Of a stretch of 64,000 nt of DNA, positions 37,438 to 47,208 are shown piece by piece; position 1 is the stretch's first letter; every line of letters starts with the position of its first letter. A model generated the notes under the pieces. The model was not told where the DNA came from, did no database searches, and saw only the letters and a list, made by a program, of their open reading frames with translations. Origin of the DNA: Candidatus Bipolaricaulota bacterium (GTDB taxonomy: Bacteria > Bipolaricaulota > Bipolaricaulia > UBA7950 > UBA9294); the NCBI GenBank assembly GCA_018817505.1, contig JAHITR010000028.1, positions 13,736-77,735 of the forward strand, read 5' to 3'. A program made the translations under genes and the position numbers.

Positions 37438-38643
37438 TTGTTTCGGGTTTTTGCCAGCTTGTTCTTCGCGACGGCCACTGCGCAGCTTGGTTTGGGAATC
37501 ATCTCCCCCATTCTTCCGTTGTATGCCAAGACGTTTGCTGCCAGTGCAACTCAGATCGGCCTCGTGTTCACGGCGTTCTCCATTTCGCGCGCCTTGCTCG
37601 GGCCATTTGTCGGGCGTCTATCCGATCGCATCGGTCGCCGCCCGCTCATTCTTGGCGGGCTTCTCATCTACGCCGTCGTATCCGTCCTTTACGCGTCAGC
37701 AACGAGCCTCTTGACGCTCGGCGCGTTCAGATTGCTGCAAGGTGTTGCGTCGGTGATGGTGACTCCCATCGCGCAGGCCTACGTGGGCGATCTCACACCC
37801 AAAGGTCGCGAGGGGCGCTATCTGAATGCCTTCTATTCGTCGCAATTCATTGGCATGGCATTCGGCCCATTGCTGGGTGGCATCATTGGCGGCATGTGGT
37901 CCTATGCCGCCGCCTTCTACGTCATGGGCGGGTTGAGCGTGCTGTCTCTCGTTCTCGTCTATCTGACCGTGCCCGTCGATCAAACAGCGCGAGAAAGGCG
38001 ACAAGTCAAGCCCAAGTCCATCACGCCGCTCCGAGAAGTTGTCGGCAATGACGCGGTCAAGGCGATGCTCGCCTACTTCATCACACGAGGGTTCTGGCGC
38101 CAGTCGTTCAACGCGTTTTATCCGCTGTATGCTGTCGTTGCATTCTCATCGGGTGAGGCCAACGTCGGTCTTGTTCTTTCCTCATACATGTTCGCTGAAG
38201 GCCTGCTGCAGATCCCGTTCGGGTTCCTTGCCGATCGATACCCTCGTATTCGTCAGATTGTGATTGGAAGCGTTTTCGCCCCCCTCATCTTACTGGCAGT
38301 CCCGTTCGTCAACTCGCCGTGGGCAGTGGCCGTGCTCACGTTCGTGATGGGGGCGTTCTCTGCCTTGGGCCGCTCCTCGCTTGTGGCCATCCGGACGGAG
38401 CTGGGGCGAACGCATGGCATGGCAACGCTTGCGGGAATTCAAGGTAGTGCTTTCGCTGTCGGCCAAGCTCTCGGACCGCTGCTCACCGGCCTGATTGTGG
38501 ACGCGGTAGGACTGCTTGCCGTGTTCCCCTTTGGAAGTGCTGTCGGTTGTGTCGGAACGGTGTTGGTTCTTTCCTGGCTGACCCGATGGAAACGAACCAA
38601 TCCCGATGCAGCTGCCATGTCACGCGCGCGGACATCTCGCTAG
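37438..38643 (+). CDS. MFS transporter
   Basis: About 12 TM segments with the MFS loop motif GRLSDRIGRRPL between TM2 and TM3. Start is assigned to the TTG at 37438 after an AAGGGGG RBS; the tool ORF starts at 37294. Confidence 0.75.
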   Translation: MFRVFASLFFATATAQLGLGIISPILPLYAKTFAASATQIGLVFTAFSISRALLGPFVGRLSDRIGRRPLILGGLLIYAVVSVLYASATSLLTLGAFRLLQGVASVMVTPIAQAYVGDLTPKGREGRYLNAFYSSQFIGMAFGPLLGGIIGGMWSYAAAFYVMGGLSVLSLVLVYLTVPVDQTARERRQVKPKSITPLREVVGNDAVKAMLAYFITRGFWRQSFNAFYPLYAVVAFSSGEANVGLVLSSYMFAEGLLQIPFGFLADRYPRIRQIVIGSVFAPLILLAVPFVNSPWAVAVLTFVMGAFSALGRSSLVAIRTELGRTHGMATLAGIQGSAFAVGQALGPLLTGLIVDAVGLLAVFPFGSAVGCVGTVLVLSWLTRWKRTNPDAAAMSRARTSR

Positions 38644-38889
38644 GATCAATTCAACCGTAGCTTCAATGCCATGTCCGACAACGTTGTTTTTCGTCAAGCG
38701 AATTCGTCTGACACGGGAAACAGTCAACACAAGACGAGCGCTACTGCATGGCCCAAATCATCGATGCCAGAGGCATTTGGAATTCATTGGGGCGCGCACC
38801 AACGAATGCTGCGGTCCGTTTGCGAGCACCCGCAAAGGTGAGCGGATTATCCCATCTCGTAGTGAGTCTCTTCCCCTCCAAGGCTCACG

Positions 38890-39174
38890 TTACCTGGTCA
38901 TCAACAGATCCATGTCCTGGAGGAATGCGGCAATGCCCTGTGCGATTTCCGCTTCATTCACCGTGTAGTATCGAGTCTGTGCCGTCTGTTTGAATACCAC
39001 GAGACCCTGCATTCGTAGAAGCTGCAAGTGCTGAGACACTGTGGAAACGTTGACTCCAATTCGCAGGGAGAGGTCATCCACAGTGAGGCTGCTATCTTCA
39101 TGGAGCAGCTTGAGAATCTCCACCCGTGTGCGTGCCGAAAGCATTTTGAAGAATGAAGAATGTGTTCTGGGCAT
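38890..39174 (-). CDS. ArsR/SmtB-family transcriptional regulator
   Basis: 94 aa wHTH: LSARTRVEILKLL...LTVDDLSLRIGVNVSTVSQHLQLLRMQGLV. Confidence 0.8.
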   Translation of the reverse strand: MPRTHSSFFKMLSARTRVEILKLLHEDSSLTVDDLSLRIGVNVSTVSQHLQLLRMQGLVVFKQTAQTRYYTVNEAEIAQGIAAFLQDMDLLMTR

Positions 39175-39200
39175 CTGCTTCCTCCTTCACAGACGATCGC

Positions 39201-39229
39201 TTGACAAGCTGCTGAGCAACAGTATAATG
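39201..39229 (+). promoter_or_regulatory. consensus sigma70 promoter TTGACA-17-TATAAT
   Basis: ttgacaagctgctgagcaacagtataat is a perfect match to both hexamers with a 17-bp spacer, between the divergent ArsR and zinc-ribbon genes. Confidence 0.55.
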
Positions 39230-39249
39230 TCTTTTGCCTAGTTAGTCAA

Positions 39250-39273
39250 TTGCGCAACTGGCGTGTTGCGCAA
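39250..39273 (+). promoter_or_regulatory. tandem palindromes TTGCGCAA-n8-TTGCGCAA in the 5'UTR (candidate operator, possibly for the adjacent ArsR)
   Basis: ttgcgcaactggcgtgttgcgcaa lies between the predicted TSS (about 39236) and the AGGAGG RBS at 39274. Each 8-mer is self-complementary. Confidence 0.35.
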
Positions 39274-39283
39274 GGAGGAAATC

Positions 39284-39520
39284 ATGAGCACGAAGCTGCT
39301 CAAATTCAAGCACAGGTTGACGTGCCCAGCATGTCATATACGAGTCCGATTTCAGGCGGCAACCGATGGCCTTGGGACGTGTCCCAGTTGTGGGGAGTGG
39401 CTGGCCCAGCACGGATTGTTCCCCAGAATCACCGTGCGCTTGAACGAAGAGCCAGGAAGAGATTTCGACGATACAGACGCGTGGGAGAAGGCGTTGACCA
39501 GAGAGATCAACTCGCGATGA
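39284..39520 (+). CDS. small zinc-ribbon protein (CPAC-x17-CPSC) with an acidic C-terminus
   Basis: AGGAGG RBS 5 nt before the ATG. 78 aa: MSTKLLKFKHRLTCPACHIRVRFQAATDGLGTCPSCGEW. Confidence 0.55.
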   Translation: MSTKLLKFKHRLTCPACHIRVRFQAATDGLGTCPSCGEWLAQHGLFPRITVRLNEEPGRDFDDTDAWEKALTREINSR

Positions 39521-39643
39521 CCCATCCGTCGTCAATGGATTCGCAAATGAGAGCAGTTGCCGTCTGTTCCGCCACAGAGCTTGCCAGATAGCCCGTCGAA
39601 GTGCCCGCGTGAGCGCTTCGGGAGCGCTCAGAGGAGATCGAAA

Positions 39644-41479
39644 ATGAGAAGATTGACCTATCTTGTTGCGCTCATTGCGTTGAGCTACCTGGCGAGCGGG
39701 CAACCAGCTCCACTGGGCATCTACGTAGAACCTCCCGCATCAGAAGGGCTCACCGTTCGAGTTTGGATGGACAAGCCAGTGTACGCCGTCGGGGAATCAG
39801 TGCAGGCATCGTTCCAGATCAATCGCAGTGCCTACGTCTACATTTGGGATATCGAGCCAACGGGGACTGTGAGGCAGATCTTCCCCAACCAATACGACAC
39901 CAGCAACTACTTCCAAGCAGGCGTCTACAGAATTCCTAGTGCTGGAAAACTCTATCGATTGGCTGTGACCCCGCCCACAGGAACCGAGTGGCTCCAGATC
40001 ATGGCGGTCACGTCTCCTGCAGTTGGAGTATTCGGGACGACAACCGCTCTGAGTCCATTCCCGGTTCTTGGACAGAATCCAGCGGTGTGGAGCGCTCAAC
40101 TGCAGGTTCAGATCAAGGGTATCGTGCCTTCTCAAGCAGATCGTGCTTTCGACTTCACGAAGTTCGATATTATCTCTGGCACTGCTCCAGCATATGGCAC
40201 GCTGCAGATCAACTCAACCCCTGCATCTGCGGAACTGTATGTCGATTCAGTGTTCCGCAGCTGGACGCCTCGCAGCATCGTGCTTACAGCCGGGACGCAT
40301 GACATCATGGTTCGAAAGGCCGGATACCAAGATCACACAACTCGCGTCTATGTTCGATCCGCTTCGACGCAAACGCTTACCGTGACCTTGGCGTCAATTT
40401 CAACGAACCTGCCTCCAATCGCGCAGTTCTCGGTCTCACCATCAGCGCCTCGCGTTGGCGAAGCCATCCAACTCGATGGTTCGACATCAACTGACGCAGA
40501 CGGGACGATCTCGTCTTATCAATGGGACTTCAACGGAGATGGCATCACCGATCAAACGGGAAGAACGGCAACGTGGCAGTACATGGTCTCAGGCGCCGCC
40601 ACCGTGCGACTGACTGTAACAGACAACCGAGGTGCAACCGGTCAAGCACTACAAACTCTCAATGTTCGTGCTGCCAATCAAGCTCCTGTGGCCCTCTTCT
40701 ACACGACGCCAGCCACTCCAACAATTTGGAGTCCCGTTATTCTGGACGCCAGTTCGTCATACGATCCTGATGGTGCAATTGCCACCTACCAATGGGATTC
40801 CGATGGAGACGGTCTCATCGATCAGACGGGGCGGACCATCACCAGGACGTACTACTCACCAGCGAGCTACTGGGTCACGCTGTACGTAACCGACCTGTTG
40901 GGTGCAACCGGAATTCGAACGCTGCCTTTGGTCGTCGGCCCGTCTTCAGTTCCAGGAATGCCGGCCATGGGGAACGTTCCTGGATTCTATGTCTGGGGAA
41001 TGGATGCATGGCGAATCACGGTCAACGGGTCACCCCTGTGGACTACACCACGCCCCTATCGCATCGAGTTGCGCACCGACGGCGTCTTCCTCAGTGCATC
41101 TTCTGGATCTGGCGTGTCACCCACGGGCCTTGTCCCAACACAAAACTCTGAGGGCTGGAAGTTGATTCTTGAGGGAAGTGTCGGCATATCAGCACAAACC
41201 TACGTATTCCAGGCAGTTGGCGCATCGTCAATCTATATGGACCTCGCGCTGGATATGGATGGCGATGGATACGTAAACCGCTCGACTGGGTTCGTTCGGC
41301 TTGGCCAGTCCATGGTCACTGCGCCGCGCAATCCTATCGTGATCGGCAAGCCAGACTGGTACTCTGGCGCCCTCACTCCGAATTTGAACTACAAGTTGGG
41401 CACGCCCGCGCTGTATTCAGAGAGCTCGCGCGTCATCTTCTACTTCACGACGATTGGAGCTCTCGGAGGAACCCCATAA
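39644..41479 (+). CDS. large secreted protein: DUF4384-like N-terminal domain, PEGA domain and two PKD domains
   Basis: Signal peptide MRRLTYLVALIALSYLASG. PEGA-like LQINSTPASAELYVDSV...IMVRKAGYQDHTTRVYV. Two PKD repeats: QLDGSTSTDADGTISSYQWDFNGDGITDQTGRTATW and LDASSSYDPDGAIATYQWDSDGDGLIDQTGRTITRTY. Confidence 0.7.
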   Translation: MRRLTYLVALIALSYLASGQPAPLGIYVEPPASEGLTVRVWMDKPVYAVGESVQASFQINRSAYVYIWDIEPTGTVRQIFPNQYDTSNYFQAGVYRIPSAGKLYRLAVTPPTGTEWLQIMAVTSPAVGVFGTTTALSPFPVLGQNPAVWSAQLQVQIKGIVPSQADRAFDFTKFDIISGTAPAYGTLQINSTPASAELYVDSVFRSWTPRSIVLTAGTHDIMVRKAGYQDHTTRVYVRSASTQTLTVTLASISTNLPPIAQFSVSPSAPRVGEAIQLDGSTSTDADGTISSYQWDFNGDGITDQTGRTATWQYMVSGAATVRLTVTDNRGATGQALQTLNVRAANQAPVALFYTTPATPTIWSPVILDASSSYDPDGAIATYQWDSDGDGLIDQTGRTITRTYYSPASYWVTLYVTDLLGATGIRTLPLVVGPSSVPGMPAMGNVPGFYVWGMDAWRITVNGSPLWTTPRPYRIELRTDGVFLSASSGSGVSPTGLVPTQNSEGWKLILEGSVGISAQTYVFQAVGASSIYMDLALDMDGDGYVNRSTGFVRLGQSMVTAPRNPIVIGKPDWYSGALTPNLNYKLGTPALYSESSRVIFYFTTIGALGGTP

Positions 41480-41561
41480 TGCCCGACTATAATGGTTCAA
41501 AGTCGCATGTGATTGTCCGTGCCGGGGGCTATAACTCTCGGCACCCGAATGGAGGTGTGTC

Positions 41562-42668
41562 ATGAGAAGAAATCAAGTGTGGACAATGGTCGCTTTGGCT
41601 GTGGCGCTGATGTCACTCACAGCGCAGGGAATGCCCCTCTGTAGCTACCAAGCACCCGAGACGTTGCTATTGGATGCAACAACCTCGTTTTCCTATCAGT
41701 ACTTTGACGATGCAAATACGCCGGGCACCGATGTGAATACTGGCAGAGTTGATTTCAGCTTCAGTCGTCTTCGTGACGCAGAAACCTATGGCTCCACACT
41801 GCGATTGAATGGCTTGATGGGTTTGTCAGACTTCCTGCCCACTCAATGGATGAGCGAGGGAACTGCGTCGTACCGCTACTACGTTTCATCGAGTCTCCCG
41901 CTGTTTGGATTCGGCGGCATCCACGGACTTTTCAACACCAGCCAAACGCAGCTTGGCCTGGAAATACAGTCAGGTTTTGGATTCGGTAGATTCGGCGATG
42001 TAACCCCACTTGCCAAGGCCATGCTCGTGGACATCAATCTTCAGAAGAACAAGGTAACCTACGTCCCATTACCAGACAGCGTGTTGACAACAATGGCCCA
42101 AACGATTGGCTCCTTGTCTGCTGAGAACTCCATCGAGACCGTGGTCGCCTTGCTTGAGTCCATCATCGAGACAACAACCGGTTTGCAGCTGGATGCTCGC
42201 ACGTTGCTGATGATTGAAGATGTCGTTGCCAACTCTGATACACAGCGGTATTGCGGGTTCACAGCCCGAGCGGGACTAGGATACGAACTCCTTGATCCTT
42301 ATGGCGGACCACAGAGTTTCTTGCTCGCCTTGTCAGCCGATGCGGCCTATGCCCCTGATCCGAACGGACAGATGCAATGGCACTTGAGCTTTTCCGGTCC
42401 ATTCGATGTCGCAAGTGAGAACACGCTGACCGGATCTTTCTCCTACGAGGTTATGGTCTCAGACGCGAATTCTCTAGAAGCCAACTACTCCTTCCAGCGT
42501 ATCCAGCCTGCAGGCGGTGTGGCGGTCACTTCACATGTCGTCACATGCAATTGGGTGATCAAGGTCGCAGCGGTTGACACGCTTGTCGGATTCTCCATCG
42601 CCCGCACGAGCGAAGATGCTGGATGGTCCATCACGTTTTCGCTATCTACGGCCATGGATCTGATCTAG
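41562..42668 (+). CDS. secreted protein, paralog 1 of an uncharacterised family (possible beta-barrel)
   Basis: Signal peptide MRRNQVWTMVALAVALMSLTAQG. Conserved blocks shared with 44805-45941: LCSYQAPE/VCSYEPPE, GRFGDVTPLAKA/GRFRDVTPLAQA, DARTLLMIEDVVANSDTQRYCG/DVRGLLAIEEILKSSDVTRLCG. Amphipathic beta-like C-terminus. Confidence 0.6.
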   Translation: MRRNQVWTMVALAVALMSLTAQGMPLCSYQAPETLLLDATTSFSYQYFDDANTPGTDVNTGRVDFSFSRLRDAETYGSTLRLNGLMGLSDFLPTQWMSEGTASYRYYVSSSLPLFGFGGIHGLFNTSQTQLGLEIQSGFGFGRFGDVTPLAKAMLVDINLQKNKVTYVPLPDSVLTTMAQTIGSLSAENSIETVVALLESIIETTTGLQLDARTLLMIEDVVANSDTQRYCGFTARAGLGYELLDPYGGPQSFLLALSADAAYAPDPNGQMQWHLSFSGPFDVASENTLTGSFSYEVMVSDANSLEANYSFQRIQPAGGVAVTSHVVTCNWVIKVAAVDTLVGFSIARTSEDAGWSITFSLSTAMDLI

Positions 42669-42856: not shown

Positions 42857-44071
42857 CTACGCGGTATAGGCTTGCCGTCGCATGCTGATAACACTCAACA
42901 ACAGTGTGACGACAGCGATGGCGCCGAGGACGGACAACTCGAAGGTCAATGCGCCCAAGCCCTGACCTGTAAGCATGATCTTTCTCAAGGCAGAATTGGC
43001 GTACGTCAAGGGAATCGCGTAGGAGATCGCACGCATGGTCGCTGGCATGGTTTCCAGCGGCCAGAAGACGCCACTGAGCATGATCGATGGTATCAGCAAG
43101 AACAGCACGAATTGCATCGCTTGAGCTTCGTTCTTGGCGACCGTAGACATCAGTGTCGCGATGCCCTGCAGGCCTACAGCAAACAAGACGATCACGAGAA
43201 TCACGGCTCCTGGATCGCCGACAAATCGAATGTCAAACAGCCACAGCGAAACGAGAAACAGTTCAGCGGCTTGGAACAGCGCAATGAGGCTGAATGCCAA
43301 CGTATAGCCCATCGTCACTTCCCACGCACTGATTGGGGCAATGAGAATACGCGTCAGCGTTCCGCCCGTTCGTTCACGAACGACGGCCATCGCTGTCAGC
43401 ATGACGGTAATCAACGTCATGGCGAATCCAATGATGCCTGGCGCTGTGAAGTCGAGCATACGAATCTTGCCTTCATAGAGTCGCTGCACATTGAGCAGTG
43501 ATTCTACAGTCACTGACGATTGTTGCGTCTCCAACACGGCCGTAAATGCATCGTTGAATGCAGCGATCACCGCGCTGGCAACAAGTGGATTGGAATCATC
43601 AATGACCAGTCGCGTGGGGGGGCCGGCATCAATCTCGCTAGGGAGCAGAGTTACACTACTGCCTTCAAACTGGACCTTGCGCTCTCCACTAGAACGTATG
43701 GCTTGGCTAACCACAGCGTTGGAAAAGGATTTGGGAAAGGCAAGAGCTGCCCATGCCTCAGTGCCGACCATGGAGAACGCTTCGTCCGCATCATCGAGGA
43801 TAACGATGTCAAAGACATCTGGATCGAGCGCGCTGACGAACGCTGCTGCCAAATCGACAGTCAGGGTGATGCGCCCCACTTCCTGGGTGCGGACTGAGGC
43901 AAGCCCGTTGTCTGCATTGACAATGACAATGGTTAAGTCAGAGTAGGAACCCGAGAATGAGTTGCCATAAATGAGCACAAAGAACAGCGGAAGGATGATG
44001 ATCAGCGCCAATGTGCGCCCATCTCTAAGAATGCGGCGCAGGACGTTTCGTGCGACAGCTAGACTGGTCAT
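42857..44071 (-). CDS. ABC-2 family transporter permease with a large extracytoplasmic loop
   Basis: N-terminal TM (LALIIILPLFFVLIY), a loop of about 200 aa, then five C-terminal TMs. 4-nt ATGA overlap with the ATPase gene. Confidence 0.8.
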   Translation of the reverse strand: MTSLAVARNVLRRILRDGRTLALIIILPLFFVLIYGNSFSGSYSDLTIVIVNADNGLASVRTQEVGRITLTVDLAAAFVSALDPDVFDIVILDDADEAFSMVGTEAWAALAFPKSFSNAVVSQAIRSSGERKVQFEGSSVTLLPSEIDAGPPTRLVIDDSNPLVASAVIAAFNDAFTAVLETQQSSVTVESLLNVQRLYEGKIRMLDFTAPGIIGFAMTLITVMLTAMAVVRERTGGTLTRILIAPISAWEVTMGYTLAFSLIALFQAAELFLVSLWLFDIRFVGDPGAVILVIVLFAVGLQGIATLMSTVAKNEAQAMQFVLFLLIPSIMLSGVFWPLETMPATMRAISYAIPLTYANSALRKIMLTGQGLGALTFELSVLGAIAVVTLLLSVISMRRQAYTA

Positions 44072-44805
44072 GAGGGCACCTCGCCACGTTCTTGGAGCAC
44101 GATGAAGGCATCGTCCAGATTATCTGTCCCCGTTTGTGCAAGGATCTCCTCTGGCTTGCCTTGTGTGAGCAGCTTCCCTGCCATCAGGAAACCGACAAGA
44201 TGGCAGCGCTGTGCTTCTTCGACGAGGTGTGTGGTCACCACGAGAGTCACATCTTGGTCAGCAAGGGCATTGAAGTAATCCCAGAACGAACGACGGAGTT
44301 TCGGGTCCACTCCCGCTGTCGGCTCATCCAAGAATGCCAATCGCGGTTTGTGAAGCAGGCTAATGGCCAGCGAAACGCGTCTGCGCATGCCGCCTGAGAA
44401 CGTGCCCACACGATCCCGTTTGCGGTCTGTCAGTTGAACGAGATCGAGAAGCTCATCGGCCCGCTCACGAACTTGCGCACGTCGCAAGCTGTATAGCTGC
44501 CCGAAGAATTCCAGATTTTGCATGACGCTCAAGTCGTTATAAACAGCGAAATCCTGTGGCATGTAGCCGAGCTGTGATCGAACGCGCGTACTTGGCATCT
44601 TCCATCCAAGCAAGGTGGCTTCCCCCTCATCCGGCCGAAGCAGACCACAGAGTGTGCGGATGAGCGTGGTCTTCCCTGCACCATTGGGGCCCGCTAATCC
44701 ATACAACTGACCTTGGGCAACAGACAGACTTAGTCCATCAAGAGCCGCTCTCTTGCCATACACTTTGCGCAATCCCTGCGCGCGGATGACGTGTTCGGCG
44801 GTCAT
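44068..44805 (-). CDS. ABC transporter ATP-binding protein
   Basis: Walker A GLAGPNGAGKTT, signature LSGGMRRRVSLA, Walker B LAFLDEPTAGVD. Confidence 0.9.
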   Translation of the reverse strand: MTAEHVIRAQGLRKVYGKRAALDGLSLSVAQGQLYGLAGPNGAGKTTLIRTLCGLLRPDEGEATLLGWKMPSTRVRSQLGYMPQDFAVYNDLSVMQNLEFFGQLYSLRRAQVRERADELLDLVQLTDRKRDRVGTFSGGMRRRVSLAISLLHKPRLAFLDEPTAGVDPKLRRSFWDYFNALADQDVTLVVTTHLVEEAQRCHLVGFLMAGKLLTQGKPEEILAQTGTDNLDDAFIVLQERGEVPS

Positions 44806-45941
44806 TAGAAAAGGTCCGTTTCCATGTACACGGCCAGCGAACTCGTCATTTCTTCATCGCCGGTCCTGTATTGCAGGCTGCCCACTAGACTGAGCCCAAC
44901 GGAGCCGAATATCTTTGTCGTCAGGCTGCCAGAGGCTGCATGTGCAGTTGCCGTGACATTGGAAGTTGTCCACAACCGATCGACAGTCACACGATACTCC
45001 GCGCGAGCGGTCCATCCATCTGGCAAGCGGCGCGTATACGAAGCGCCCGCCTTGATGTTCATCTGCTCAGGATGAGCAAGCCGAATCTTAGCCTCAGCGC
45101 TGGAATTAAACTGCGAAACAGGATCTGGAACCGCAGCATAGCGAATGAGGACGATGCCTGTTGAAGCAACGCTGAACTCGGGATAAACCATGGCAGAAAC
45201 ACCAAGACGTGCCTGCAAATCACGTCCGCACAGGCGCGTCACGTCGCTTGATTTGAGGATCTCCTCAATCGCAAGCAACCCGCGAACGTCGAGATCCTGA
45301 CCAGATACCAATTCAGTCGAAACCAGTTTGGCAACCAATGTGACGACCTTCTCATCGTCTGCCAAATCAATGCTTCCTAAAATCTGAGCCAGGTCCAACA
45401 GGGTCTCGTTGCTGACAGGAGCCAGCAATTCGCCAAGGTCAAGCAATTCATTTTGAATCGATATCGCCTGTGCCAGTGGGGTAACATCACGGAATCTCCC
45501 CGTACCTAGGCCTCCAGTCAGATCAAGTTCAAGGCCTTCTTGCGTGGATGCAGAGAATCCGACTACGCCAACGCCAAAGATATCTGCGTAGGCTGGGGTA
45601 TCGGCAGCAAAGAAGCTGCTCAAGCTGCCTGACCCGAACACGCTGGCCGCCCATCCACTGCCATCGGCGCGAATCTCGGTTCGTGCATCCAATGCCTGCC
45701 CAAAGGCTGCAGAAGAGTAGATGCCGGTGTAGTCGCCGACGAGGCTTGCAGACATCGTTCGATTGCGATCGTCCGCAAAGGGGCCGTCATACCAGTTGAA
45801 TGAGCCCAAGAGGCCAAAATCGGAAATGCGGCTCTCTGGCGGTTCGTACGAGCAGACGGATAAGGCAGCTCCACAGGCAGCGAGACCCGCCATGAATCCA
45901 AGGAATGCCGTGGTCACCACGACAAGCATCGTGCGTTTCAT
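44805..45941 (-). CDS. lipoprotein, paralog 2 of the same uncharacterised secreted family
   Basis: GGAGGA RBS, then ATG at 45939-45941 (MKRTMLVVVTTAFLGFMAGLAAC; lipobox LAAC). C-terminal ...AVYMETDLF ends in Phe, as in outer-membrane beta-barrels. 1-nt overlap (TAATG) with the ATPase start. Confidence 0.65.
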   Translation of the reverse strand: MKRTMLVVVTTAFLGFMAGLAACGAALSVCSYEPPESRISDFGLLGSFNWYDGPFADDRNRTMSASLVGDYTGIYSSAAFGQALDARTEIRADGSGWAASVFGSGSLSSFFAADTPAYADIFGVGVVGFSASTQEGLELDLTGGLGTGRFRDVTPLAQAISIQNELLDLGELLAPVSNETLLDLAQILGSIDLADDEKVVTLVAKLVSTELVSGQDLDVRGLLAIEEILKSSDVTRLCGRDLQARLGVSAMVYPEFSVASTGIVLIRYAAVPDPVSQFNSSAEAKIRLAHPEQMNIKAGASYTRRLPDGWTARAEYRVTVDRLWTTSNVTATAHAASGSLTTKIFGSVGLSLVGSLQYRTGDEEMTSSLAVYMETDLF

Positions 45942-45999
45942 GATCCTCCGATACTGCGTAGGCATCTGAGATAACACTACAGTGATTCGATGGAGGCGG

Positions 46000-47208
46000 T
46001 CAAGAAATCGAGGCATGGCTTGGCCGCAGCAGGGTTTCCAACATCTGATGCTTGATGCCGTAGGTTTCCTTCAGCGTCTCAATCTGCTTGTACGTTTCCT
46101 CTCTTGAAGCAGGCGGATCCCCACGAATCGCAAGGATCAGCTTGTTCTTGCTTGTATGTTCTAGAGACACGAACTCGAGAATCTGCGTCTTGTAGCCGTG
46201 CGCCTCCAATAGCAGCGCACGAAGCGCGTCAGTCACCATGTCGGCTTCTTGCCCCATGTGCACGCCATACTTGAGGACAGGCAGCAGATTCGCCGGACTC
46301 TTGATCTGCTGACGAACTTCCTTGTGGCAGCAGGGCGAACACATGATGATGCCAGCACCTGAGCGGATGCCCAAATGAATGGCGAGGTCCGTTGCCGTGT
46401 CGCAGGCATGCAGCGCAATCAGCGCATCCATCGTTTCCGGGGCCGAACTGCGGACATCGCCGATACGAAAATGCAATCCACCCATCTGAAGACGAACGGC
46501 AAGATCTGTGCACAGATTCACGAGCTCTTCTCTCAGTTCCACGCCCGTCACCACAGTTTCCTTGTCCAACACGGACTGAAGATAGTCATAAATGGCAAAC
46601 GTCAAGTAGCCCTTGCCTGATCCGAAGTCGACGACGCGAATGGCATCCTTTGTTGTGAGCTCCGAAGAGGCTACGGCGTGATCAAAGATCTCAATGAACT
46701 TGTTGATTTGTTTCCATTTGCGCGCCATCGCAGGCACAATGCGCTCGCTAGGACCGGTCACGCCGAGCGTTCGCAAGAATGGGCGCGATGAATCCACATA
46801 GCGCCGCTTCTGTCGGTCGTGTTCTATCTCCTGAACAGTCGAACGCGACGGATTTCCAGTTCCCAGCTTCGCTTTGCCCTTCTTGCTGAATTCGATCTGA
46901 ACATCCTGCGTTTCGGTGAACAGGTGAGCGGCCTTGAAAGCCACTCCGAGGAGACCACGGATTTTGTCAAGGCCATGACCCTGTGGGCCATTCTTGGTGA
47001 TGTCACGCGTTTCGTAGCGATAGACAAACGACAGATGCGGCTGCCCCTTCAGGATGACCCGGCGAATGACAAGCCGCTTCAGATCGGGCTGTTCGCCGCG
47101 ATACTTGGTCAGCAGTAGCTCAATGAAACTGCCGTCAGTCAATGCGGACGCGACCGTACCGAGAAACGCCTCCGTCTTCTCCTGATCAGTATTCCTTGTC
47201 GTTCCCAT
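46000..47208 (-). CDS. SAM-dependent methyltransferase (METTL25/Methyltransf_32-like)
   Basis: VVDFGSGKGYLTFAIYD glycine-rich SAM loop. Family recall from memory. Confidence 0.6.
   Translation of the reverse strand: MGTTRNTDQEKTEAFLGTVASALTDGSFIELLLTKYRGEQPDLKRLVIRRVILKGQPHLSFVYRYETRDITKNGPQGHGLDKIRGLLGVAFKAAHLFTETQDVQIEFSKKGKAKLGTGNPSRSTVQEIEHDRQKRRYVDSSRPFLRTLGVTGPSERIVPAMARKWKQINKFIEIFDHAVASSELTTKDAIRVVDFGSGKGYLTFAIYDYLQSVLDKETVVTGVELREELVNLCTDLAVRLQMGGLHFRIGDVRSSAPETMDALIALHACDTATDLAIHLGIRSGAGIIMCSPCCHKEVRQQIKSPANLLPVLKYGVHMGQEADMVTDALRALLLEAHGYKTQILEFVSLEHTSKNKLILAIRGDPPASREETYKQIETLKETYGIKHQMLETLLRPSHASIS

Follow-up and report, generated by a model that had tools for sequence, protein, structure and literature searches.

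A tandem palindromic array over overlapping divergent promoters as the putative operator of a non-metal ArsR/SmtB-type repressor in Candidatus Bipolaricaulota

Autorepressors of the ArsR/SmtB family with divergent or overlapping promoters include SmtB-smtA, CzrA and CadC as well as the non-metal members HlyU, NolR, BigR and SdpR, and the known operators of the family are one or two 12-2-12 inverted repeats. Repressor systems described for bacterial heat shock comprise HrcA with CIRCE (at groESL), HspR with HAIR, RheA at hsp18, and CtsR, which has repeated operators and a zinc-finger partner, McsA. CtsR acts as a heat sensor (PMC6305308). Within the ArsR family, heat-shock repression of hsp20 is known from Phr, whose binding site spans the transcription start (PMC6316755; PMC10746257). 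Here we analyse a 64-kb stretch of a Candidatus Bipolaricaulota genome (contig JAHITR010000028.1 of assembly GCA_018817505.1; 'the window'), in which an ArsR-type gene faces away from an operon encoding a zinc-ribbon mini-protein and a large secreted protein with DUF4384, PEGA and PKD domains. A previous reading of the same letters (the original prediction) had picked out a consensus promoter and a pair of palindromes between the two. We think it rather likely that these palindromes belong to a five-unit array that serves as the operator of an autoregulated, non-metal ArsR/SmtB repressor, which would silence a promoter of consensus strength that serves a stress and envelope regulon; we infer both the binding and the signal from sequence comparison.

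Like the ArsR/SmtB autorepressors, the window has a small regulator of the same fold and family and a putative operator of imperfect dyad symmetry that overlaps the promoters of both the regulator and the adjacent operon. It differs from them in the absence of canonical metal sites from the regulator, in a five-unit array of 8-bp period in place of those inverted repeats, and in a cargo of chaperones, USP and envelope proteins as opposed to metal resistance genes. The elements of the control region are as follows.

38890..39174, minus strand: ArsR/SmtB-family winged-helix regulator of 94 amino acids (aa), lacking Cys and any canonical metal site (Pfam, NCBIfam, structural relatives, composition)
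39180..39185, minus strand: Shine-Dalgarno sequence GGAGGA of the ArsR gene, TCCTCC on the plus strand (sequence)
39201..39228, plus strand: predicted outward promoter P(+), TTGACA-16-TATAAT, 12/12 consensus (promoter scan)
39221..39249, minus strand: predicted promoter P(-) of the ArsR gene itself, TTGACT-17-TATACT, 10/12 (promoter scan)
39234..39273, no strand: putative operator, five tandem 8-bp quasi-palindromic units of consensus YTGNNCAR (conserved register, dyad axes, profile score)
39234-39241, no strand: unit 1, TTGCCTAG
39242-39249, no strand: unit 2, TTAGTCAA, containing the -35 of P(-)
39250..39257, no strand: unit 3, a perfect TTGCGCAA that forms the midpoint of the 40-bp dyad and abuts the -35 of P(-)
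39258-39265, no strand: unit 4, CTGGCGTG
39266..39273, no strand: unit 5, a perfect TTGCGCAA, abutting the Shine-Dalgarno sequence
39274..39279, plus strand: Shine-Dalgarno sequence GGAGGA of the zinc-ribbon gene (sequence)

The predicted promoter P(+) has its -35 TTGACA at 39201-39206 and its -10 TATAAT at 39223-39228, with a predicted transcription start at ~39235. Its spacing falls in the 16-18 nt range of sigma-70-type promoters, and it lies ahead of a gene with a ribosome-binding site. When both strands of the window were scanned, this was the single site of the TTGACA/TATAAT pattern even with one mismatch allowed, where 0.05 would be expected by chance. The original prediction was thus right about the perfect hexamers and their rarity, although the spacer is 16 nt and not 17, the promoter ends at 39228 and not 39229, and the DNA that it called GC-rich is only moderately so, at 55% G+C. 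It overlooked P(-), whose hexamers (TTGACT at 39249-39244, TATACT at 39226-39221) are placed as would fit the ArsR gene. Because the -10 of P(-) overlaps that of P(+), sharing 4 bp with it, the two promoters are overlapping and divergent, and the 5' ends of their transcripts would be mutually antisense. The -35 of P(-) (AGTCAA on the plus strand) lies between the stretch downstream of the P(+) -10 and the first TTGCGCAA. The region 39201-39279 is probably a compact two-way switch, with a strong promoter for the operon of the zinc-ribbon, DUF4384 and 368-aa proteins and a weaker one for the ArsR gene.

The array, likewise overlooked as a whole, spans from the predicted start of P(+) to the ribosome-binding site. 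Its best copies, units 3 and 5, are the two TTGCGCAA octamers with 8 nt between them that had been correctly recorded at 39250-39273 with GGAGGA directly after. The octamer occurs seven times in the window against 1.7 expected (none of 100 shuffles reached seven). Five of these copies are isolated and were read as lying within coding sequence, and the pair TTGCGCAA-n8-TTGCGCAA, for which a wider search had been proposed, occurs once. With a profile of the 40-bp array, positions 39234-39273 reach 54.4 and the next independent match in the window only -0.5, and profiles of 40, 22 and 10 positions found no second operator site there. The 40 bp form an imperfect palindrome centred on unit 3; in two related loci (L003 and L040) the central 18-22 bp are perfectly palindromic, (TT)GTCAATTGCGCAATTGAC(AA). 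A dyad-symmetry scan over 49 loci gave peaks every 4 bp from the -10 through the Shine-Dalgarno sequence, which is the signature of tandem palindromic 8-bp units (YTGNNCAR) with palindromic junctions (CAA|YTG). Because each unit and each junction is palindromic, the dyad axes return at 4-bp steps, and no one dimer register could be preferred for placing half-sites.

The conservation of the whole architecture in relatives had also been missed. The regulator has many homologues of ~95 aa and 50-73% identity, one of which is named Candidatus Bipolaricaulota. A profile scan collected 18 related loci from metagenome-assembled genomes (MAGs) labelled Bipolaricaulota, Acetothermia or 'uncultured Thermotogae' and 80 more from metagenomes. 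We counted promoter conservation over 73 non-redundant loci and array register over 48 aligned ones. Oriented like the window, the intergenic regions align without gaps, with the consensus TATAATGCCAG CTGCCCAG ATAGTCAA CTGCGCAA CTGACAAG CTGCGCAA GGAGG downstream of the -10. P(+) is a 12/12 match in 58 of the 73 loci and an 11/12 match in a further 12, and P(-) is present as TTGACT-17-TATACT in 56. Apart from the promoters, nothing but the array is conserved between the two start codons. The array is linked exclusively to this subfamily of regulators: the promoter-plus-box architecture adjoins ArsR homologues in ~70 non-redundant Bipolaricaulota loci and is found almost nowhere else in ~600 kb, as the earlier association of the boxes with the ArsR gene would have it. 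Perfect TTGACA-16/17-TATAAT promoters occur in that DNA only in these regions and at one extra site, L012:8195.

Variation among the arrays keeps to the 8-bp register. Unit 5 is always flush with GGAGG, even in six loci that carry one extra spacer-type 8-bp unit between units 3 and 5 (e.g. CTAACACG CTAACAAA), which we read as slippage duplications preserving the register. One clade (L067, L085 and L087) has TTAG-type units, TTAGCTAA, TTAGACAA and TTAGGCAA, in unchanged register, and a distant homologue locus (L016, regulator 45% identical) has two copies of GTTAGCTA 16 bp apart. The box type of unit 3 co-varies with the wing residue that follows a conserved RYY in the regulator (H versus E/S; Fisher p = 7e-5, uncorrected for phylogeny). 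First downstream genes other than the zinc-ribbon gene encode a membrane protein, the 368-aa protein or a micro-open reading frame (micro-ORF), and since the array is kept where the first gene does not encode the zinc ribbon (L012-14, L046 and L101), it tracks the regulator or regulon and not the zinc-ribbon gene.

Two contigs of a sister genome (GCA_963986125.1) are informative about the window's own arrangement. On contig CAXCWG010000015.1 (L100), which runs MFS gene, switch, zinc-ribbon gene (72% identical) and 368-aa gene and adjoins an ABC-2 operon, no ArsR gene adjoins the switch. The switch itself reads TTGACA-16-TATACT followed by units TTGCCTAA TTAGTAAA TTGCGCAA CTGGCATA TTGCGCAA; only the -35 of P(-) has decayed, to TTTACT, and the boxes persist. 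On contig CAXCWG010000010.1 (L101), an ArsR homologue is divergent from a perfect promoter and array, followed by a micro-ORF, a 611-aa DUF4384/PEGA/PKD protein, the 368-aa gene, a 145-aa gene and DUF4230. Boxes that persist without an ArsR gene on L100, in a genome with the ArsR homologue on L101, suggest that the array functions within a small regulon as a trans-acting site, and the window, whose arrangement is split over these two contigs, looks like a fusion of both. The DUF4384 operon thus appears to be a genuine member of the regulon in the window's sub-lineage.

The regulator itself belongs, by its sequence matches, to the ArsR/SmtB family (Pfam PF01022 HTH_5, 9.5e-12 and 45 bits against a cut-off of 22; NCBIfam NF033788, 'metalloregulator ArsR/SmtB', 69.9 against 55). 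Its closest solved structures are HlyU, SmtB, NolR and Rv0081, of which HlyU, NolR and Rv0081 are non-metal members. It has no Cys, and its three His (positions 5, 25 and 49) lie outside the C-terminal helix; the alpha3 CxC position, aligned with CVC of the CadC-like Lmo1102, reads TVD. Neither the alpha3/alpha3N CxC nor the alpha5 Asp/His/His/Glu ligands of the metal sensors are found in it, and the alignment of 34 subfamily sequences holds no conserved Cys, C-terminal His or ligand set. The regulator is thus probably outside the metal-sensing subgroup, and its inducing signal is probably not a metal. Two more specific assignments were rejected: the Phr-type model (NCBIfam NF053602) scored 15.9 against a cut-off of 320, with only residues 9-61 matching and 94 aa compared with ~190-200 aa, and the SdpR-type autorepressor model (NF033789) scored 45.8 against 100.

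What the switch drives in relatives points in another direction. Operon content was taken from inspection of open reading frames (ORFs), tblastn and Pfam, and counts were made over the 41 non-redundant loci in which the operon side extends for 1.6 kb or more. The typical order is a zinc-ribbon gene, a Lys-rich micro-ORF with a hairpin, Hsp20, a 42-aa ORF with a hairpin, GroES and GroEL, sometimes a 146-aa or 368-aa secreted protein, and then USP and MFS. The zinc-ribbon gene comes first in 27 of the 41. On the operon strand at least one of Hsp20, GroES/GroEL or USP is encoded in 24 loci (Hsp20 in 14, GroES/GroEL in 12, USP in 14) and the 368-aa type in six. DUF4384, part of the operon in the original prediction, is encoded in none of the 41 and is therefore not the typical cargo; among relatives it stands behind the switch only in L101, the sister-genome locus that was found separately. 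Over 4 kb of the operon strand, L086 and L036 have nothing promoter-like besides the perfect promoter, and the strand showed no terminator-like site. Among the compared operon genes (chaperones, USP, MFS and secreted proteins) we identified no metal transporter, metallothionein or reductase, and neither the window operon (zinc ribbon, DUF4384/PEGA/PKD and 368-aa proteins) nor those of its relatives carry cargo for metal efflux, sequestration or reduction. The comparison supports the earlier suggestion of a tightly repressed, inducible operon, in that the region looks like the control region of a strongly repressible one; a response to stress is more likely for this switch than a response to metal.

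By analogy, the system would work like the repressor-controlled chaperone operons (HrcA-CIRCE, HspR-HAIR, RheA-hsp18, CtsR and Phr), with another protein and another operator. It has in common with the bacterial ones a repressor that would hold a strong chaperone promoter, with rheA-hsp18 the divergent arrangement of an autoregulated gene, with CtsR repeated operator units, and with mcsA a small zinc-binding protein encoded alongside the regulator. In contrast to these, the regulator is not of the HrcA, HspR, RheA or CtsR families. No CIRCE element (TTAGCACTC-N9-GAGTGCTAA, up to two mismatches per arm) was found in the related loci or the window, HrcA genes not having been searched for, and the only two HAIR-like matches in related loci (L010 and L017) are far from chaperone genes. 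Unlike McsA, the zinc-ribbon protein of the window has a single CxxC-x15-CxxC site and no similarity to a named family. The archaeal Phr (PF1790) and HSR1 are alike in their ArsR-type winged helix, their palindromic site across the start and their hsp20 or heat-shock genes (PMC6316755; PMC10746257). The window system differs from Phr in being bacterial, with sigma-70-type promoters and another operator sequence, and in a regulator of 94 aa that lacks a C-terminal domain, compared with the 191 positions of the Phr model.

We propose that the 94-aa ArsR/SmtB-type protein binds the array as several dimers. Occupancy of units 1-2 would cover the predicted start of P(+) (~39235) together with the spacer and -35 of P(-), and occupancy of units 3-5 would extend the complex to the Shine-Dalgarno sequence. 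With the array bound, both promoters would be shut, so that the operon was tightly repressed and the regulator negatively autoregulated, until some signal released the repressor and the consensus promoter fired in a very strong burst. The original prediction had the palindromes block the ribosome-binding site; they do adjoin it, but the pair is an incomplete description of the five-unit array. Given that the array begins at the predicted start and holds the -35 of P(-), promoter occlusion and autorepression would be no less probable than a block of translation initiation. The most likely inducer would be heat or a different proteotoxic or envelope stress, to which the hsp20-groES-groEL-usp cargo of the relatives, the missing ligand residues and the example set by Phr all point. 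Speculatively, the zinc-ribbon protein might be a partner of the regulator, given that its one zinc ribbon is flanked by a basic N-terminus and an acidic C-terminal helix. Whereas the sequence elements, their conservation and linkage to the regulator subfamily, and the genes of the operons are observed, the ArsR protein as the binder, the number of dimers, the mode of repression and the signal are inferred from comparison of loci.

Several observations weigh against this proposal. The boxes are assigned to the ArsR protein through their co-occurrence, and a spacing of 8 or 16 bp puts units on different faces of the helix. The extra 8-bp unit of six loci would be unusual for cooperative binding of dimers and is easier to accommodate in an RNA loop, and the constant contact of unit 5 with the Shine-Dalgarno sequence is not required by a mechanism acting on DNA only. 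Even across differing boxes, the recognition helix stays TVSRHLQLLR. Within the subfamily P44 and R48 are at least 90% conserved (PTVSRHLQLLR), compared with STVSQHLQLLR in the window, where S44 and Q48 (minus-strand codons 39044-39046 and 39032-39034) lie in and before the recognition helix; the window boxes are of the common TTGCGCAA type despite these residues. Finally, the 64-kb window holds no hsp20, groES, groEL or usp, so that the link to stress is indirect for the window's own operon.

Some of these points bear on an alternative that we regard as unlikely, namely that the TTGCGCAA copies act in the mRNA as a hairpin of the 5'-untranslated region (UTR) beside the Shine-Dalgarno sequence (a transcript stabilizer, a thermometer-like element or a protein-binding stem-loop), the DNA repeat being secondary. 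The UTR of the window folds into a 9-bp stem (centroid -14.4 kcal/mol), and across 48 loci a 6-bp stem has 90% of its cells paired, with seven cells changed on both sides (including L038, TGTGCA...TGCACA) and one-sided changes that mostly yield G-U pairs. Both the 8-bp insertions, which fall in the would-be loop, and the position of unit 5 would suit such a structure. A parallel change of two palindromic DNA sites would, however, also preserve pairing, and because each box is itself palindromic the pair counts do not discriminate between DNA and RNA models. The TTAG-type clade is unable to form the stem yet keeps the register, the predicted folds differ by clade (units 3 + 5, 1 + 5 or 2 + 4), and folding of 68 UTRs gave a median z of -0.9 (-0.09 for the window), with the Shine-Dalgarno sequence left free and not sequestered. 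Taken together, pair counts and folds lean against one helix shared by all loci. Rfam 15, including its RNA thermometers, gave no match up to E = 1 in 38600-41700 and only chance-level matches in L086. Conservation is just as strong for units 1-2, although these are situated at or upstream of the predicted start and include the -35 of P(-).

Somewhat less probable again is that another factor, for example the zinc-ribbon protein or an unlinked regulator, binds the boxes, with the ArsR protein acting elsewhere or only on its own promoter. Such a factor would account for a recognition helix that stays invariant while the boxes vary and for boxes that persist on L100 with no ArsR gene beside them, and the leading position of the zinc-ribbon gene in most loci would make its product a candidate. 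Yet the L100 genome does encode an ArsR homologue elsewhere, the array is present where the zinc-ribbon gene is absent, and the intergenic region offers no alternative conserved non-promoter element to serve as the ArsR site. That a metal-sensing ArsR/SmtB repressor releases a metal-responsive surface-protein operon, as the original prediction supposed from the family's frequent control of divergent metal operons, and as the match to the generic NF033788 model would allow, is very improbable for a Cys-free protein with TVD at the CxC position, no His in its C-terminal helix, no ligand set conserved in its subfamily, several non-metal proteins among its closest solved relatives and no metal-handling gene identified among the compared operons.

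Under the operator proposal, the window instance is a well-built but ordinary autoregulated switch, and its interest lies in the phylum-wide chaperone link. A broader scheme is possible, though we put it forward tentatively: that the chaperonin and small-heat-shock operon of the Bipolaricaulota is held by an undescribed minimal ArsR/SmtB-type repressor instead of HrcA-CIRCE, sensing heat or unfolded protein directly or via the zinc-ribbon protein and acting through a periodic 8-bp palindromic array over overlapping divergent promoters, and that the window shows this switch recruited to a cell-surface operon (DUF4384/PEGA/PKD). The window example suggests that surface and envelope proteins are co-regulated with chaperones in the window's lineage. 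Literature searches on ArsR-type control of hsp20 or groES, on stress regulation in Bipolaricaulota and on the octamer as an operator returned no description of this system, and no regulatory knowledge for the Bipolaricaulota turned up. If the scheme holds, an entire uncultured phylum would gain a candidate for the master regulator of its stress and chaperone regulon, together with the operator, and the operator profile would let that regulon be read directly from MAGs. The ArsR/SmtB family would also be extended by a non-metal group of bacterial proteins tied to chaperones. This group would be the equivalent in bacteria of archaeal Phr and would have arisen within the family's canonical bacterial branch. 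A consensus-strength promoter with a compact operator would also be a ready-made, tightly repressible expression cassette.

Downstream of the switch, the window operon contains the following features.

39284..39520, plus strand: zinc-ribbon mini-protein, 78 aa (ATG at 39284)
39610..39630, plus strand: 9-bp hairpin TGAGCGCTT-CGG-GAGCGCTCA, just upstream of the Shine-Dalgarno sequence of the DUF4384 gene (sequence)
39644..41479, plus strand: 611-aa protein with DUF4384, PEGA and two PKD domains (Pfam)
41562..42668, plus strand: 368-aa signal-peptide protein with no family match (Pfam, NCBIfam)

The zinc-ribbon protein has the 78 aa expected from the original prediction, with its cysteines (C14, C17, C33 and C36) spaced as CxxC-x15-CxxC (CPxC-x15-CPxCGEW) and not x17; its N-terminus is basic, and its C-terminal FDE..DxWE helix is acidic. 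Homologue searches place it in a small unnamed family, and neither these nor Pfam and NCBIfam detected similarity to a named one; a structural model from a 32-sequence alignment was poor (predicted local distance difference test, pLDDT, 54.5). The large protein, for which Pfam bears out the DUF4384-PEGA-PKD-PKD order, is 611 and not 612 aa long, with an N-terminal hydrophobic signal-like segment and ~200 C-terminal aa without a domain assignment. The 368-aa protein is paralogous to a 403-aa protein at 44805-46016 (minus strand), whose gene heads a convergent ABC-2 transporter operon (42857-44805); both have a signal-like N-terminus, and neither matches Pfam or NCBIfam. Since the 368-aa type also follows groEL in L033, L036, L053 and L073, it is recurrent in these operons.

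The hairpin at 39610-39630 has no T-run and was not scored as a terminator (fold of the spacer overall, z = +1.4); it occupies the place that the micro-ORF hairpin has in relatives. That micro-ORF encodes 19-23 aa (consensus MATKKxKKxTKKTPKAASxKGR) behind a strong Shine-Dalgarno sequence and is conserved in relatives (L086:3621-3559, L002:3615 and L101:5824, all on the minus strand, and at least 20 other related loci) and absent from the window. It lies between the zinc-ribbon gene and hsp20 or directly after the operator array, and 8-12 nt past its stop is a sequence-conserved GC hairpin, GGGGAGCGGGC...GCCCGCTCCCC, with no T-run; the micro-ORF may act as a leader peptide coupled to an attenuator, or its product may be a genuine small basic protein. 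A second small ORF, between hsp20 and groES, encodes ~42 Arg-rich aa ending in ...QPKSWRERT and is followed by the hairpin CCGGGCGGCG...CGCCGCCCGG (region L086:2937-2817, minus strand; same position in L081, L036, L039, L006 and L073). The extra promoter at L012:8195-8264 (plus strand) is a second perfect one with box-like units, TTGACA-16-TATAAT ... GTGCGCAA TTGGGCAT; it lies 4 kb from the ArsR gene and is divergent from an MFS gene, and the locus stops before the gene that it would drive.

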